Notes under the pieces: generated by a model
Seen by the model: only the letters and a program-made list of their open reading frames with translations
Databases searched by the model: none
What the model was told of the DNA's origin: nothing
Shown: in pieces, positions 3,380 to 12,769 of the stretch
How the letters are laid out: every line of letters begins with the position of its first letter
Position numbering within the stretch: position 1 is the stretch's first letter
Source: Escherichia phage nieznany
Sequence record: NC_052659.1
Direction: 5' to 3' (one strand)
Length of the DNA stretch: 64,000 bases
Translations under genes and position numbers: made by a program

Positions 3380-3553
3380 ATGGGAGATAAACAAAGTAAC
3401 ATCCGTTACGCGCTTTATGGAAGAATGGGTGCAGATTGTGAATGGATGCTTCTGTCGCAACGTATACCCTCTTACAAAGAGGCTCTTGAAAAAAGAGACT
3501 ACTACAAACAAACATGGCGTTTTGTCATTTGTAAACACTATTTGGAGGCGTGA
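3380..3553 (+). CDS. small hypothetical protein (57 aa)
   Basis: ATG at 3380 follows a strong TAAGGAGG SD; stop 3551-3553 couples to the next start; preferred over the overlapping track ORF 3417-3641. Confidence 0.4.
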   Translation: MGDKQSNIRYALYGRMGADCEWMLLSQRIPSYKEALEKRDYYKQTWRFVICKHYLEA

Positions 3554-3861
3554 TGAGTACATTATCATTAGCAGTTACGGTGCACCAGTATTACGAAGAA
3601 GCTGTAAAAGATTCAGAAAATCCATCTACATTAGTATTTGAAGATCGGACTGGTCTTAAATGGGTAGAATCTTGTGGTGAACTTTACTTTTGGTATCCAC
3701 AAGGTTGCACAAGTAATTCTAATTTGTATAGTTATGAACTGGAGTATCGTGCGCCTGTAGACGAAGATGATAATTACATCATGTATTATGTTAATAATGG
3801 TTGCGGTGAAATGTTTAATGTAGTATTCTCTAAAGCCTTGAAGTCCGACGAGGAGATGTGA
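3553..3861 (+). CDS. hypothetical protein (about 102 aa)
   Basis: GGAGG SD; start ATG 3553 (or GTG 3550). Confidence 0.45.
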   Translation: MSTLSLAVTVHQYYEEAVKDSENPSTLVFEDRTGLKWVESCGELYFWYPQGCTSNSNLYSYELEYRAPVDEDDNYIMYYVNNGCGEMFNVVFSKALKSDEEM

Positions 3862-4220
3862 TGAGAAAAGTGCTGTTTGCCTTGCTGTTATTAGCCTCTG
3901 CTGGTGTTTTTGCTCGTGACGGCTTTAAGGTTGGGGCAGATCGCACTAAATTCTTCACATGGTTCGGAGGTGAAGCACTTTACCAAGACGGTAAAGATAA
4001 AATAAAATGTAAGTATGTAGAAACATTAAAAGGTGTGGATGATTGGGGTGATGCTTATCAAGCAACAGGCTTCTCTTGTAAGAAACACCTTTACATTGTA
4101 GTAAAAGAGTTTCAAGATATAAATAAACAACTTTTTATTTTAGTAGATCCTAGCAAATTTGATGAACGGACAGCTTATGAAGTTGACATGTTCTTAGAAT
4201 ACAAGAAGGAGGAAAAATGA
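3858..4220 (+). CDS. secreted/periplasmic hypothetical protein with signal peptide
   Basis: N-terminus MMRKVLFALLLLASAGVFA is a classic signal peptide; GAGGAG SD. Confidence 0.5.
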   Translation: MMRKVLFALLLLASAGVFARDGFKVGADRTKFFTWFGGEALYQDGKDKIKCKYVETLKGVDDWGDAYQATGFSCKKHLYIVVKEFQDINKQLFILVDPSKFDERTAYEVDMFLEYKKEEK

Positions 4221-4579
4221 GAGAAATGATTGTAGATGTTGTTATTAATGGTCAACGTTATGTGCCTGTTGTAGAGAAAGCTGAACCAGATGCTTTAGAT
4301 GTTGTTTTTGAAGACGATGATCTTGGAACTGTTACTGTGCGTGAATATTTCAGACGACTGCTCTCTACACTTTGGGAAGAAGAAGACAGTTTCAGTGGAA
4401 AACGCCCTTTCGGTAACTCTTGCTGGCAGTTCGATTTGATTATTGGTTTGATCGATGCTGGCTACCTGGAAGGTAAAGTTTATCGTGATGAAGATGGTGG
4501 TATAGAAGATACCGACTATGATCGTGAAGAAGCAGATAAACTCATCCAGGGTCTGATCGCACGTATGTGTTTAGGTTAA
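4217..4579 (+). CDS. hypothetical acidic protein (120 aa)
   Basis: AAGGAGG SD; start overlaps previous stop. Confidence 0.5.
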   Translation: MREMIVDVVINGQRYVPVVEKAEPDALDVVFEDDDLGTVTVREYFRRLLSTLWEEEDSFSGKRPFGNSCWQFDLIIGLIDAGYLEGKVYRDEDGGIEDTDYDREEADKLIQGLIARMCLG

Positions 4580-4580
4580 T

Positions 4581-4949
4581 ATGAAGGTATTAAACTTTTA
4601 CCATTTAGGCAAAACAATCCCAGATGGTGCTGTTTATATTGGTAGAGCAATGCCACATATGGGACTAAAAGCCTCTAAGTTTGCAAACCCTTTTAAGTTA
4701 AAAGATGATGAACCACGAGGATCAACTATACAAAGGTATAAAGAGTGGTTGTGGGAGCAAATTCGTTGTGGTAAGATCACTCTTGAAGATTTATTAGAGT
4801 TAGAAGGGAAAGATTTAGTTTGCTTCTGCTCCCCTCAACCTTGTCATGGAGATGTATTGATAGCAGCCGTGGCCTGGGCTAGAAAAGAGTGGGACAAAAG
4901 GCATCCTACTTATGTAGACAATTATTGGATTTGGGAGGAGAATTTTTGA
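4581..4949 (+). CDS. DUF4326-like protein
   Basis: Motif LVCFCSPQPCHGDVL matches the conserved Cys/HGD signature I associate with DUF4326; N-terminal YIGRAMP. Confidence 0.4.
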   Translation: MKVLNFYHLGKTIPDGAVYIGRAMPHMGLKASKFANPFKLKDDEPRGSTIQRYKEWLWEQIRCGKITLEDLLELEGKDLVCFCSPQPCHGDVLIAAVAWARKEWDKRHPTYVDNYWIWEENF

Positions 4950-7681: not shown

Positions 7682-8235
7682 ACACAGGTGTGATTGCCGA
7701 AGCCATCCAGAGTTATGGACGCTTTGCTGAAATGTTAGATGTTCCTTATTTAGTGGATGCAGATATTTTGGCATTCACACTGCCACCTGGCAAAGAAGAT
7801 GCTCCTTTGGGGCATCCTAATGGGAAGTTTTATGTTGCCAGTGCCGAGCAATCATTCTTGCAAATGGAAAAGGATGGCTACGAGTTTATCGCTGGTCATC
7901 CCTACATGGCCCTGACACCATGTTACCGCACAGAGGAAGTGTTGGATGATTCTCACTTCAACATCTTCTTGAAGCTGGAGTTGATTGAGTTCTATCCCAG
8001 CTTTGGTGAAGTGAAAGAGTATGCCGAAGAAATGCGATACTTCTTCTGGACCTACTACAAAGTCCAAACAAGAATTGTAGAAACAGAAATAGGGCTTGAC
8101 GTGGAAGACATGAATGGTTTAGAATTAGGGTCATTCGGAACAAGATTGTCCCCACAAGGTCATCCATATATTTATGCAACAGCCATAGCCGAACCTCGTG
8201 CATCTATGGCAATTAACAGGAGGAATCATGATTAA
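7678..8235 (+). CDS. hypothetical protein (185 aa)
   Basis: Coupled ORF; no recognisable motif. Confidence 0.5.
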   Translation: MNTGVIAEAIQSYGRFAEMLDVPYLVDADILAFTLPPGKEDAPLGHPNGKFYVASAEQSFLQMEKDGYEFIAGHPYMALTPCYRTEEVLDDSHFNIFLKLELIEFYPSFGEVKEYAEEMRYFFWTYYKVQTRIVETEIGLDVEDMNGLELGSFGTRLSPQGHPYIYATAIAEPRASMAINRRNHD

Positions 8236-9613
8236 TAAATTTGCCCGTAAACAGGAAGTTGCTGAAGCAGCACGTCGCGCTGGTGTGTATGACAAATTGT
8301 GTGAAGGTATTGTGAAGGTGTATGGCTGGGAGGGAGAAGATGATCCAACCTGTTCAGGTGATTTTGCAATGAACGATATGACCTTCCCATATATTTCCTA
8401 CAATGCCTCCACTGGTGAAATAAACGGTGTAACCAGCACCAGTGTTGATCGTTATCCAGATGCAGAACAAACCACAGGAGGTTACATGTTAGATCTGATT
8501 CTTAAGAAATCAGGGTTATTGGGAATCGAAGACGTTTTCGTAGATGCAGATAGTTTATCATTAGGAGATGTTGTTAAACTACTGGTAGACTTTAGATTTG
8601 CAACAGGTAAAAGCTTCTGGAAGCCAGAAGATGCTGAACGTTTGAAGACAATCGATCCAAGTATGTATGAACTGCCACAATATAAAGATAAACAATTCCG
8701 CAAGGTTATCTTCTTTGATCGTCAAGCAGGCTTAGATGCAATGCATATTGAAGTTGGGGATTTACCACGCCCACACTCTGCTGCTACTGGTGATCGCGGC
8801 CTTGTAGAAGTCACGGCTCAAGAATTTAAAAATATGTTTGCTGCGAAATACGATGAAGCTGCGCCTGTGCCAAGTATTGAGGAGCAAGAGGAAGAACAGT
8901 TTGTAGCGGAAGATACTGCATTTGAATATCTGCCGAACACAGGTGTTATGCCTTCAGAAGATTTCGTGCAGGTTCGCTTCAACAATGGTCAAACAGATGT
9001 TGCTAAGGGAACAGTATTCACTTGGAATATCGACAATCTGGAAGAGTGGGCGATTAAAGAATACTTCATTCTCCCGCGCACGGCAAAATACAACTATAAT
9101 AATGGTGGACACCGCCCTTGTGGTGGTCACGTAGAAGTTCTCTTTCGTGACGGAACTACGGATAGTGGATCGGCTACGCATTTCACTTGGGGTCATGTTG
9201 GATATGATCGGGATATTGTTGGTTGGCTTCCAACTAACAACCCTAAACCACGTTACCGTAAGCCTCGTAAGAAGCCTCCGGTAGGTAAGAAGAGTGTCGT
9301 TCGTGTCCTCTACACTACGCAACAGACCTACACATTTAAAAATGTGGTAGACGTGCAAGTAACCGAGGAGCGAGTTTATATCCAATATGATCGTGAAGTT
9401 ACAGAGGGTATCAAAGAATCGGTTACTACCGAAATTGAAAATAAGCTTGTTATGGCAATCATTGTGGAAGAAAGTAAAGTAGAGAACGGTAAAGCCTATA
9501 CTGTTCGTGATAGCTTCTTGCGTAATATCGATGGAACCTGGGATTACAATGGACACGATGGGACCGCTGTGAAGAACGGTAAGATCATGGGAAGACAATT
9601 CCTCTCCAAATGA
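8228..9613 (+). CDS. hypothetical protein (461 aa)
   Basis: Start moved to ATG 8228 (AGGAGG SD, ATGATTAA overlap with upstream stop); no recognisable motif. Confidence 0.5.
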   Translation: MINKFARKQEVAEAARRAGVYDKLCEGIVKVYGWEGEDDPTCSGDFAMNDMTFPYISYNASTGEINGVTSTSVDRYPDAEQTTGGYMLDLILKKSGLLGIEDVFVDADSLSLGDVVKLLVDFRFATGKSFWKPEDAERLKTIDPSMYELPQYKDKQFRKVIFFDRQAGLDAMHIEVGDLPRPHSAATGDRGLVEVTAQEFKNMFAAKYDEAAPVPSIEEQEEEQFVAEDTAFEYLPNTGVMPSEDFVQVRFNNGQTDVAKGTVFTWNIDNLEEWAIKEYFILPRTAKYNYNNGGHRPCGGHVEVLFRDGTTDSGSATHFTWGHVGYDRDIVGWLPTNNPKPRYRKPRKKPPVGKKSVVRVLYTTQQTYTFKNVVDVQVTEERVYIQYDREVTEGIKESVTTEIENKLVMAIIVEESKVENGKAYTVRDSFLRNIDGTWDYNGHDGTAVKNGKIMGRQFLSK

Positions 9614-9623
9614 TAAAACTTAA

Positions 9624-9646
9624 AGGCGCACTTTGCGCCTTTTTTG
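9624..9646 (+). terminator. rho-independent terminator
   Basis: 7-bp stem AGGCGCA/TGCGCCT with 3-nt loop followed by TTTTTT. Confidence 0.6.
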
Positions 9647-9716: not shown

Positions 9717-10589
9717 ATGAAAGATTTGTACCAAGATGTTTTTTCTTTTTTAGATCGCACTTCAGAAACATACACTAGAGAGAATGCAAACAAACCTTCC
9801 CACCTCGTTAACACGCATAGGGATCTCTTGGCGGGGATTTTAAGCAAACATATGGCAATGACACAGATACTGCCAAAAAACTTGTCAGAATGGCATACAG
9901 AAGGTTTTGGACATATTCACGACTTGGATTATCTGCTCTCTCCTCTTACAAACTGTTGTCTTGTTAATTATCAAGATATGTTAGAGAATGGTTTTAAGAT
10001 CGGTGCTGCACAGATAGAAAAACCAAAATCTATTGGAGTAGCTACTACCGTGCTAACTCAAATCATCCAAGCTGTTGCCTCCAGTCAGTATGGAGGTCAG
10101 ACGTGTGCGCACATTGATAAAGGTCTTAGTCCTTATGTTGAAGCTAGTTTCCTTAAAAACATGGAGATAACCAAACGTCGCTACGGTTGTTATGCAAGGA
10201 AAGAAGCCCTAGAAATGACCGAACAAGATGTATATGACGCTATGCAAACTCTTTTGTATCAGGTTAACACTTTAATGAGTGTTAATGGACAATCTCCTTT
10301 TATTACAATCAGTATGGGTCTGGATACCTCTGTTTTTGGCAGAATGATCACAGCTAACTATCTTAAAGTGCATAGTAACGGTCTAGGTAAAGATCATGTA
10401 ACGCCTGTATTCCCTAAAGTTATTTTCTTTTTACAAGAAGGTGTTAACATGAAACCTAGTGATCCTAACTACGACCTTAAGCAACAAGCTTTGGCATGTT
10501 GTGCTGATCGTATTTATCCAGATTTTATTTCTGTTCCTTTGAACAAAGAAGTTACGGGGTCAGCAGATGGCACTGTTACGAGTATGGGT
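9717..10589 (+). CDS. nrdD: anaerobic ribonucleoside-triphosphate reductase NrdD, exon 1
   Basis: GFGHIHDLDY and downstream class III RNR-like sequence; reading frame runs into the intron and stops at 10598; exon ends on a U (..ATGGGT). Confidence 0.7.
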
Positions 10590-11360
10590 AAACTATAACT
10601 GCTCATGTAAAATCTGCCTAAACGGGGGAACTCTCAACAGAGACAATCCCGTGCTAAACGTAACAGAACTCCCAACACAGAAGAAGGGGGGTACTGATAT
10701 GAGAAAACAAATTCGTGATTTTGAAGGGTATGAAATTGACGAGCTTGGAAATGTTTATTGTACCAGGTATAAGGATGAAAGAATCCTTCGCTCGTGGGAA
10801 GAAATAAACACAGGATACCAACTTGTCAGAATACGTAAAAACAAGAAAACTGTTTGCTTTCGGGTGCACAGACTTGTAGCTGAAGCGTTTTTACCCAATC
10901 CAGACAATTTACCTTATGTGAAGCATAAAGGTGACAATAGGAAAGACAACAGTGTATACAATCTTGAGTGGGGATCTTGTCCAGACAACACGCAAGAGGG
11001 TTACGATAATAACTGTTATGCTTTCTACACAAGGTGTCACAGTGTAAAAGCTACTCATAAGGCTACTGGTGAAGTTTTTTACTTTAAAAGTCTGAGATGT
11101 TGTGCTGACGCTTTAGGGTTGGACAGAAAAAGAATATCTGCAATCTTAAAGCAAGGAGCACCAAATAATTATGATTATGAGTTCTGTTACGAAATGCCTA
11201 ACGACTAGCTGTGATGAATGTAGCAGCGTAGGGTGTAAGCCTATGACACCCCAAATGGTAGACATGCTTTAAGCATGAAGATATAGTCTGATCTGCATGG
11301 TGACATGCAGCAGCACGTAATGGTGCGGGAGTGGCCTTGCGAGCCACTTTGAACATAATG
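10590..11360 (+). mobile_element. group I self-splicing intron in nrdD with internal HNH endonuclease ORF
   Basis: Conserved core AAATCTGCCTAAACGGGGGAACTCTC...AGACAATCCCGTGCTAAA (10609-10657) closely resembles the T4 td/nrdD intron core; candidate IGS GCCTA pairs with exon end UGGGU; intron ends on G 11360; splicing restores ..TSMG|CRSFLSYY.. Confidence 0.7.
10699..11208 (+). CDS. HNH homing endonuclease (NUMOD4 plus HNH_3 type), intron-encoded
   Basis: FEGYEIDELGNVY (NUMOD4-like), VHRLVAEAFLPNP and KHKGDNRKDNSVYNLEWGS (HNH); ATG 10699 with AAGGGGG SD; lies wholly inside the intron. Confidence 0.8.
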   Translation: MRKQIRDFEGYEIDELGNVYCTRYKDERILRSWEEINTGYQLVRIRKNKKTVCFRVHRLVAEAFLPNPDNLPYVKHKGDNRKDNSVYNLEWGSCPDNTQEGYDNNCYAFYTRCHSVKATHKATGEVFYFKSLRCCADALGLDRKRISAILKQGAPNNYDYEFCYEMPND

Positions 11361-12302
11361 TGTAGAAGTTTCTTGTCATACTATGCAACAGAGCAAGGAG
11401 AAAAATATGATGGACGATTCAACCTTGGAGTAGTTTCTATCAACTTGCCTCTGATTGCTGCGGAAGCGAGAAGTAAAGGAGAATCTTTCACCGATCTTCT
11501 TAATAAACATATGGAGATAGCCTACGATGCTCACATGCTACGTGTAAACCGTATCAGACATACCAAAGCATCTGAAAACCCTATTCTTTTCATGGAAGGG
11601 GCTTTAGCGCGTTTAAATGCCAACGATGAAATTGGTGCTTTGTTTGAAGGTGGTTATGCTTCTATTAGTATTGGTTATGTAGGTCTTGCCGAAGCTTTGG
11701 AAATCCTTTATCCAGAGGAAAAAGATAAAAAGGAACTAGGTAAAAACATTCTGCAACATATGAAAGATGTGTGTGCTGTGTTTAAAGAACGATCTAAGTT
11801 GGCATTTAGTCTTTATGGAACTCCAGCAGAATCCTTGTGCTATAAATTTGCAACAGCTTTAAATGAAAAATATCCAGGTCTGGTAGAAAGAGACTATCTT
11901 ACTAATTCTTTTCATCAACCTGTATGGTTGGTAACAAATCCTTTTGAAAAATGGGATTATGAAGCAGGTTTTGCACAGATTAGCAATGGTGGTAACATAA
12001 GTTATGTCGAAACACCAAACTTAAAGAATAACTTAGAAGCTTTGGAGACTTTAGTAGACTACGCTTATGAACATATTCACTATTTTGGTATTAATCAGCC
12101 CGTGGATCAATGCTTTAAGTGTGGTTTTCATGGAGAATTTAAGGCAACGGCTAAAGGGTTTGAGTGTCCTAATTGTGGCAACCATGAAGAAGAAACTATT
12201 TCTGTAGTTAGACGTGTATCAGGGTATCTTTCTGCCCCTAATTCACGGCCTTATAACAAAGGTAAAATGCAGGAAGTTTTGCAAAGGGAGAAACATCTTT
12301 GA
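11361..12302 (+). CDS. nrdD: anaerobic ribonucleoside-triphosphate reductase NrdD, exon 2
   Basis: C-terminal zinc ribbon CFKCG..CPNCG and glycyl-radical motif RRVSGYL. Confidence 0.8.
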   Translation, partial: CRSFLSYYATEQGEKYDGRFNLGVVSINLPLIAAEARSKGESFTDLLNKHMEIAYDAHMLRVNRIRHTKASENPILFMEGALARLNANDEIGALFEGGYASISIGYVGLAEALEILYPEEKDKKELGKNILQHMKDVCAVFKERSKLAFSLYGTPAESLCYKFATALNEKYPGLVERDYLTNSFHQPVWLVTNPFEKWDYEAGFAQISNGGNISYVETPNLKNNLEALETLVDYAYEHIHYFGINQPVDQCFKCGFHGEFKATAKGFECPNCGNHEEETISVVRRVSGYLSAPNSRPYNKGKMQEVLQREKHL

Positions 12303-12769
12303 ATTTTGCAGGATATGAACCTGTAGATCTTATTAATGGTGAGGGAGTTAGGTGCTCCCTCTGGGTTAGTGGTTGTAGCCACGGTTGTCGTGGCTGTTTT
12401 AACCAAAAAGCCTGGTCTTATTCTTATGGGAAACCGTTTACTGACGAAAATGTAGAGCAAGTTTTAAAAGATTTGTCAAGACCATTTGTAAAAGGTTTAA
12501 CAATTTTAGGAGGAGAACCATTAGATCCGCAGAATATTCACAATGTTAAAAGCCTTATAGAAAAGGTTAGAGACGTTTATGGGTCAAGCAAAGATATAAT
12601 GGTGTATACAGGATATACTTTTGAGGAAGTGCCTTTGTATATTAAAAATCTTGTTGACATTATTGTAGACGGAAAGTACGAAATAAACAATCCAACTACA
12701 AAACCTTTCAGAGGGTCAGATAATCAAAGATTATGGACCAAAACGGCAAGTGGTTGGCAATCAGATTAA
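12299..12769 (+). CDS. nrdG: anaerobic RNR activating protein NrdG (radical SAM)
   Basis: CSHGCRGCFN radical-SAM cysteine motif; directly downstream of nrdD; TTG start. Confidence 0.8.
   Translation: MNFAGYEPVDLINGEGVRCSLWVSGCSHGCRGCFNQKAWSYSYGKPFTDENVEQVLKDLSRPFVKGLTILGGEPLDPQNIHNVKSLIEKVRDVYGSSKDIMVYTGYTFEEVPLYIKNLVDIIVDGKYEINNPTTKPFRGSDNQRLWTKTASGWQSD

Follow-up and report, generated by a model that had tools for sequence, protein, structure and literature searches.

Results

The nrdD gene of phage nieznany is split by a 771-nt insertion

We analysed a 64,000-nt stretch of the genome of Escherichia phage nieznany (NC_052659.1; the whole stretch is called the window below), a phi92/rV5-like coliphage of the genus Phapecoctavirus, in which the anaerobic ribonucleotide reductase gene nrdD is interrupted by a 771-nt insertion with an open reading frame (ORF) of its own. 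Across positions 10400-11500 the window was 99.7% identical to the Phapecoctavirus 536P1 and 99.5% identical to Escherichia phage nepoznato; the exons, the intron with its ORF, nrdG and the ORF upstream of nrdD lie on the plus strand. The nrdD frame is open from 9717, runs through a first exon of 291 codons (9717-10589, ending ACG AGU AUG GGU in the RNA) and reaches a stop two codons past 10589 (…ACG AGT ATG GGT | AAA CTA TAA). It picks up again at 11361 (TGT AGA AGT TTC TTG, encoding CRSFL) and continues through a second exon of 313 codons and a stop (11361-12302). When both exons were compared with the Pfam NRDD profile, exon 1 accounted for positions 1-263 and exon 2, which also matched Gly_radical, for positions 264-562, with zero positions lost or duplicated. 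Exon 1 matched that of nepoznato at 100%. The joined exons encode a 604-aa NrdD, which gave a single colinear alignment with T4 NrdD (PDB 1H78) over residues 7-603 (E = 7e-168). A group I intron with an HNH homing endonuclease had been proposed at 10590-11360 from the letters alone (the original prediction), with precise excision restoring a continuous NrdD (..TSMG|CRSFL..); the frame, the profile and the allele comparison below agree with the split and the join, and only the predicted length of about 605 aa had to be corrected.

Uninterrupted alleles were sought in a phage collection with a 1180-nt query made of the joined 590 nt of each exon. We found the query sequence contiguous in many Phapecoctavirus genomes, among them ESCO13, ASO2A, AV125, dw-ec and BI-EHEC (96-98.7% exon identity). 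The closest, ESCO13, reads …ACGAGTATGGGT|TGTCGT… across the junction, and the intron-less allele of this type contains …ATGGGTTGTCGTTCC…. Both window exons are intact and 98.7% identical to this functional-looking allele. The T before the insert differs from its final G and the T after it differs from its initial A, so that the 771-nt block has only one possible placement. Uninterrupted nrdD was also found in Paula (phi92 genus) and in the rV5-like naswa, and such a presence/absence polymorphism at the identical site among close relatives is characteristic of homing introns. An intein was ruled out because the frame reaches a stop two codons inside the insert.

Mapping onto T4 NrdD placed the insertion point between T4 residues 289 and 290, with Cys80, Cys292 and Gly579 of the window corresponding to T4 Cys79, Cys290 and Gly580, and with the four zinc-site cysteines conserved. 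The intron thus stands directly before the codon for Cys292, the first of exon 2, whose T4 equivalent we take to be the thiyl cysteine of the active site, at the finger-loop tip. In T4 NrdD, a class III enzyme, Gly580 is the residue that holds the radical (PMC2795772). Codons for catalytic residues are a usual insertion point of introns and homing endonucleases in phages (PMC2988022).

The insertion folds as a group IA2 intron

When the whole window was scanned with Rfam at the gathering thresholds (curated at 50 bits for RF00028), no match was returned. By E-value, RF00028 matched 11071-11310 with 39.7 bits (E = 2e-8), the 5' half of the model being forced onto ORF sequence. In an E-value scan of all 64 kb this was the only Rfam match (E = 1.2e-6); no second intron was found in the window by that scan, and a tRNA scan of the window was also empty. 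The covariance-model check named in the original prediction therefore found the group I family by E-value but at a score kept under the gathering threshold by the 510-nt ORF inside the P6 loop. The ORF-less copy in phi92 (279 nt), whose ribozyme parts are almost identical, scored 70.6 bits with a sensible alignment, five further ORF-less homologues scored 55.7-79.8 bits in a batch scan, and the T4 nrdD intron, which has its ORF downstream of the core, scored 105 bits. Copies with the ORF in the loop, from HMD-6, VEcB, F99 and L048, all stayed below the gathering score in the batch scan. As an observation in its own right, every copy with an ORF in L6 (the window, L003, L005, L010 and L048) scored under the threshold and the ORF-less copies passed it.

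An IA2 fold was drawn by hand on the T4-type pattern and then tested on an alignment of 14 homologues with the L6 insert removed, comprising the window, phi92, the rV5-like HMD-6 and 24-2-1, the Felix-O1-like D1-2, Vibrio phage F99, seven IMG/VR contigs obtained by motif scan and the T4 nrdD intron. Ten helices with 52 pairs were counted (P1, P3, P4, P5, P6, P7 with its pseudoknot, P7.1, P7.2, P9 and P9.2), and P6a, P8 and P9.1 were left out of the count because MAFFT misaligned them. The results showed standard pairing in 97.4% of 718 cells and two-sided, compensatory changes in 25 of the 52 pairs. None of 500 shuffles matched any of the four measures, and sliding the 3' partners by 1-3 columns lowered pairing to 32-44%. 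The conserved core helices P3-P9 and the P3/P7 pseudoknot are thus kept by compensatory changes, as expected of an IA2 intron. Subgroup IA is marked by two extra helices between P7 and P3', and both of these, P7.1 and P7.2, are present, with double changes in four of the five P7.1 pairs. Furthermore, the minimum-energy fold of the phi92 intron recovered all non-pseudoknot helices, including P6a, P6b, P8 and P9.1 (z = -4.9). The pairing of P6a across homologues was read by eye only (CGUAAC/GUUACG, GAUGUA/UACAUC, CAGC/GCUG, CGG/CCG and CAAAGUAUU/GAAUACUUUG).

At the 5' splice site the exon end AUGGGU (10584-10589) pairs with the internal guide GCUCAU (10601-10606) to form P1 in 14/14 homologues, and the wobble U10589·G10601 and the terminal G11360 were likewise present in all 14. 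A candidate P10 joins intron CUAUA (10593-10597) to exon 2 UGUAG (11361-11365); read by eye, it covaries, with UUGGCA/UGCCGA in F99 and CUCUAUA/UGUAGAG in D1-2. Covariation supports P3 (UCUGCC, 10613-10618, with GGUAGA, 11257-11262), P6 (GC, 10653-10654, with GC, 11196-11197), P7 (GACUA, 11203-11207, with UAGUC, 11284-11288), P7.1 (11208-11212 with 11223-11227) and P7.2 (11231-11236 with 11246-11251). Both covariation and the fold of the phi92 twin support P4 (ACGGG, 10622-10626, with CCCGU, 10648-10652), P5 (UCUC, 10632-10635, with GAGA, 10640-10643), P9 with its GUGA tetraloop (11293-11299 with 11304-11310) and P9.2 (11330-11335 with 11343-11348), and the twin fold gives P8 (11263-11267 with 11273-11277) and P9.1 (11313-11316 with 11323-11326). 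P6a is formed by 11 bp of complementarity between CGUAACAGAAC (10659-10669) and GUUCUGUUACG (11181-11191). The segment J8/7-P7, GAAGAUAUAGUC, was placed by the RF00028 alignment, and the intron ends in the 3' tail …GAACAUAAUG, with G11360 as its last base. Collectively, the E-value match, the ORF-less twins above threshold and the covariation-backed fold identify a group I intron, and the T4-like core sequence (at 10610-10659), the guide pairing with the exon end and the terminal G that had been read from the letters all proved correct.

The intron encodes an I-HmuI-type endonuclease whose gene overlaps the ribozyme

The ORF (10699-11208, 510 nt, 169 codons) encodes a homing endonuclease of the I-HmuI type, confirming the predicted HNH gene. 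It holds an HNH motif, His76…Asn88 KHKGDNRKDNSVYNLEW, and a C-terminal NUMOD-like DNA-binding module. The stretch KH76KGDNRKDNSVYN88LEW aligned with the I-HmuI motif DHKDGNKDNNLSTNLRW, and the catalytic His and Asn are both present. Residues 3-166 of 169 aligned with residues 4-172 of 174 of I-HmuI (PDB 1U3E; E = 8.7e-9), and the PHROG HNH families 59/959 were matched, PHROG 59 with E = 4e-34. Like I-HmuI, which is encoded in the DNA polymerase intron of Bacillus phage SPO1 and has I-HmuII, I-BasI and I-TwoI as relatives, the protein is intron-encoded, about 170 aa long, colinear over its whole length and built of an HNH motif followed by a C-terminal helix-turn-helix-like module; it differs in its low sequence similarity and in host gene and target. 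Searching with tblastn found relatives in other phage introns, including I-BasI and an HNH ORF listed under the Twort nrdE gene, and no HNH paralogue was found elsewhere in the window. Comparison with the copy in the rV5-like HMD-6 revealed 58 synonymous and 20 non-synonymous differences (dN/dS 0.044), showing that the ORF is maintained by purifying selection. In the window the ORF is intact and its protein is identical to that of nepoznato.

The ORF had been called peripheral, and it does sit in a loop, which is closed by P6a, in the window an 11-bp long-range helix. Its last eight codons (…E F C Y E M P N D stop), however, are at the same time the 3' strands of P6a and P6, J6/7 and the 5' strand of P7 (11181-11207), and its UAG stop at 11206-11208 overlaps P7. 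The HMD-6 and F99 ORFs share the peptide end …EMPND, which is presumably held constant by the RNA core. At the other end of the gene, the ribosome-binding site (RBS) and start codon lie in a local hairpin (10659-10701; the fold of 10652-10712 has -14 kcal/mol, z = -4.07), in which ACUCCC (10668-10673) pairs with the Shine-Dalgarno-like G-run and a U (10687-10692) and CGUA (10659-10662) pairs with UAUG (10698-10701), start codon included. This hairpin shares its 5' strand with P6a/P6b, and in phi92 the same helices are P6a/P6b. The three endonuclease genes of the T4 introns are all described as having their RBS sequestered in a hairpin (PMC2988022). With ribozyme strands forming the end of the ORF and a hairpin holding its start, ribosome passage and ribozyme folding should exclude each other, and endonuclease synthesis would be kept low.

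The intron probably moved recently between phage genera

We then compared the intron with its flanking exons in related phages. The window intron was identical to that of VEcB (Justusliebigvirus) at 768 of 771 positions (99.6%), whereas the exons were only ~76% identical. Comparison of the exon 2 start with ESCO13, VEcB and Paula revealed that positions +1 to +33 (11361-11393, TGTAGAAGTTTCTTGTCATACTATGCAACAGAG) are identical to Justusliebigvirus sequence; this tract differs from the intron-less ESCO13 allele by nine synonymous changes, and from +39 the window is ESCO13-like again. This donor-type run is a co-conversion tract and marks the donor as phi92-like. On the exon 1 side no co-conversion tract was found, the end of exon 1 being of the Phapecoctavirus type. 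An intron far closer than the gene around it, together with co-conversion of a flanking exon, is what homing leaves behind, and the data point to a recent homing event in which the intron passed horizontally between phage genera. As a separate matter, the final 31 nt of exon 1 hold three synonymous changes (G10560, C10572 and T10575) that were private to the window among the aligned genomes, differing from the intron-less ESCO13, the intron-bearing nepoznato and the phi92 group.

Exon 2 starts with UGUAGA in every intron-bearing allele at this site except that of Vibrio phage F99 (UGCCGA), while intron-less alleles start it with UGUCGU, UGCCGU or UGCAGG, so exon sequence compatible with P10 moves along with the intron. 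At 95% identity or more the HNH ORF was found in about nine records, four of them Phapecoctavirus in our reading, out of ~60 Phapecoctavirus records, and this low frequency fits a recent arrival in the genus. I-HmuI and I-HmuII nick one strand (PMC2988022), and the one-sided tract in exon 2 would be compatible with single-strand nicking of the intron-less allele.

The endonuclease gene has also been lost. In phi92 it was removed by a deletion between two CTG triplets, leaving the intron of 279 nt, and in pEC-M2929 by a different deletion that kept …YDYEFCYEMPND; the Felix-like D1-2 retains only an ORF remnant. Comparison of the sequences indicates at least two losses within the phi92 group. 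The phi92 intron (NC_023693) stands at the same site as that of the window and has the same initial bases of exon 2, and its ribozyme is identical except for an extra A in the P5 loop of the window and the ORF insertion point in P6b; it differs in its lost endonuclease gene and in exons that are only ~76% identical. Taken with D1-2, these losses follow the cycle of invasion and decay that is the usual course of homing elements (PMC1654191).

Annotation of the locus and the possibility of a split gene

How the locus has been recorded varies. The phi92 record of 2012 already annotates a joined coding sequence (CDS), gp192A 'spliced variant', so that the intron is effectively annotated in one relative; it is uncharacterised and of a thoroughly known type. 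Several rV5-like records place an ORF labelled homing endonuclease between two nrdD pieces, and the nepoznato record gives two nrdD CDSs around a 'hypothetical protein', followed by nrdG. Our literature search, which did not reach the phi92 genome paper, found no paper describing the intron, its splicing or its endonuclease. The rV5 paper mentions terminase introns only, and the Felix O1 paper reports no introns, yet the Felix-like D1-2 and L012 carry the nrdD intron at the Cys site.

The two-CDS annotation, which GenBank and RefSeq apply to nepoznato and most relatives, would be literally right if the gene were split without splicing, NrdD being made as two polypeptides (residues 1-293 and a C-terminal piece started in the 3' end of the intron) beside a free-standing HNH gene. 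Such an arrangement has a precedent in Aeh1, whose NrdA is split by mobE and assembles without splicing (cited in PMC2988022 and PMC3653736), and in the window a GTG-started ORF (11331-12302) spans the whole of exon 2. We regard it as very improbable nonetheless. A complete core kept by compensatory changes would have no reason to persist if it were never spliced, and the polypeptide would be broken immediately ahead of the catalytic cysteine, at the active-site loop tip. The ORF-less versions keep the ribozyme and drop the ORF, the opposite of what a free-standing gene predicts, and the phi92 record annotates the spliced product.

The ribozyme is related to the T4 nrdD intron but occupies another site

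The T4 nrdD (sunY) intron is among the closest known systems. Both are IA2 introns of the same host gene with P7.1 and P7.2 and with all compared helices colinear, and the cores are 70.5% identical over 78% of the length, which bears out the description 'T4-type'. They also share an identical guide, GCUCAU, the P9 GUGA hairpin and a similar 3' tail (UGAACAYAWUG). The sites are different, however: the T4 intron starts 538 nt into the gene, inside codon 180 (phase 1), and that of the window lies between codons 291 and 292 (phase 0), so that insertion at the T4 site was ruled out. The T4 ORF encodes the GIY-YIG enzyme I-TevII and lies downstream of P9, whereas the window ORF is of the HNH type and lies in the P6 loop. 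The window ribozyme is thus a homologue of that of the T4 nrdD intron which occupies a new site and hosts an unrelated endonuclease gene in a different loop. Modular histories of ribozyme and endonuclease are well documented for phage introns.

The td and nrdB introns of T4 (with I-TevI and, in RB3, I-TevIII) resemble that of the window as IA2 introns of nucleotide-metabolism genes, and td-intron regions of T4-like phages were 81-86% identical to the 3' core of the window over ~60 nt; they differ in their genes and endonucleases. The ORFs of the td and nrdB introns lie in the P6 loop. I-TevIII, an HNH enzyme that acts as a dimer and breaks both strands (PMC1865063), was absent among the listed matches to the window ORF.

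The guide faces UAUGAGU in T4 and UAUGGGU in the window. It is possible that one ribozyme lineage moved between two nrdD sites with its guide GCUCAU unchanged and independently captured two unrelated endonucleases (an HNH enzyme in P6 and a GIY-YIG enzyme after P9), and reverse splicing into a look-alike site would be expected to leave just such an unchanged guide at two sites. We advance this tentatively and incline slightly against it. The window nrdD contains three AUGRGU hexamers; a compatible site is thus not rare, and the shared guide is suggestive of site-hopping rather than proof of it.

Further interruptions were seen in related sequences. The nrdD of Vibrio phage F99 is interrupted twice, at 327-1485, the equivalent of window residue 126/127, where the insert holds a 310-aa HNH ORF, and at 1993-2745, the Cys site, where it carries a homologue of the window intron with its HNH ORF. 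Escherichia phage 24-2-1 has an ORF-less intron at the Cys site and a second interruption of ~260 nt (2733-2995) near residue 452, which scored under the RF00028 gathering threshold. The IMG/VR contig 3300018411_000044 contains, at ~3500-4900, two IA2-type introns in a single gene region; they are separated by ~1.1 kb and differ slightly in their P7.1 loops (GAUGAGUGUA and GAUGAAUGUA).

Neighbouring genes and related records

Downstream, nrdG, the gene of the activating enzyme (12299-12769; Pfam Fer4_12 / Radical_SAM), overlaps the nrdD stop. Directly upstream of nrdD lies a 461-aa ORF (8228-9610) that the RefSeq nepoznato and phi92 records call 'ribonucleotide reductase'; it had no Pfam match at E <= 0.01, and the label looks unsupported. 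Between this ORF and nrdD we found a strong bidirectional terminator-like hairpin (9622-9642, AAAGGCGCACTTTGCGCCTTT followed by a T-run), suggesting that nrdD-nrdG may form a separate transcription unit. Among the phage records MG065639-MG065690 ('Campylobacter phage A1xx/Cx'), many were 80-90% identical to rV5- and phi92-like coliphages across nrdD and the intron, and their Campylobacter jejuni host label is probably wrong.

Discussion

The data are best explained by a splicing-competent, mobile group IA2 intron in nrdD that carries an active I-HmuI-type endonuclease, and we put the probability of this reading at about 0.92. By analogy with its family, the pre-mRNA would fold with the exon end AUGGGU paired to the guide GCUCAU as P1, and an external guanosine bound in P7 would attack after U10589. 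The freed exon 1 would then attack after G11360, helped by P10 (CUAUA / UGUAG), and the ligated nrdD mRNA would give the 604-aa enzyme, with the junction between Gly291 and the equivalent of T4 Cys290. The endonuclease would be translated from unspliced or excised RNA. In a mixed infection it would probably nick or cut an intron-less nrdD near the Gly-Cys codons, as I-HmuI does, and repair would copy the intron together with a short stretch of exon 2.

Several observations weigh against this explanation. The window copy stays below the curated score for membership of RF00028 (39.7 against 50 bits), and the ORF falls just below the cut-offs of two Pfam families, HNH_3 (22.0 against 24.8 bits) and I-HmuI_NUMOD-like (25.4 against 27 bits). 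P1 is nearly without covariation, five of its six pairs being invariant, and is thus supported by conservation only. Promoter-like sites for the ORF were not above chance (8 found, 9.3 expected). In addition, T4 does not need nrdD for aerobic growth, and since the gene is dispensable in air, a copy that fails to splice could be retained for some time.

The last point leads to a reading in which the element has decayed, with the ribozyme or the endonuclease inactive in this phage and nrdD effectively a pseudogene that is tolerated since the aerobic reductase suffices. Decay of the ORF is common in this intron family, and the window has two small changes of its own, an extra G in the G-run 10686-10691 compared with nepoznato and an extra A in the P5 loop compared with VEcB. 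Both of these, however, lie in loops or the RBS stem, outside the core helices, and all core helices pair in the window sequence. The intact ORF, with a protein identical to that of nepoznato, and the two intact exons, so close to the ESCO13 allele, also speak against decay, and we give this reading as little credence as the split gene.

The main value of the result is in annotation: the locus should be recorded as one spliced nrdD with a homing endonuclease, not as two genes and a 'hypothetical protein'. Rfam annotation at gathering thresholds systematically misses phage group I introns that have an ORF in a core loop. If the ribozyme did change site within nrdD, the intron-less, ORF-less and ORF-bearing alleles of culturable coliphages would be a tractable natural system for studying intron site change, and the same alleles would allow study of how the partnership of intron and endonuclease is assembled ('collaborative homing'). 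The nrdD intron leaves current understanding unchanged; since relatives already have it annotated, the finding is right but no surprise. It adds a further case to the known rule that mobile introns occupy those codons of ribonucleotide reductase genes that are best conserved and indispensable for catalysis, and with its 33-nt co-conversion tract it documents cleanly, in nature, how an intron recently passed from one phage genus to another.

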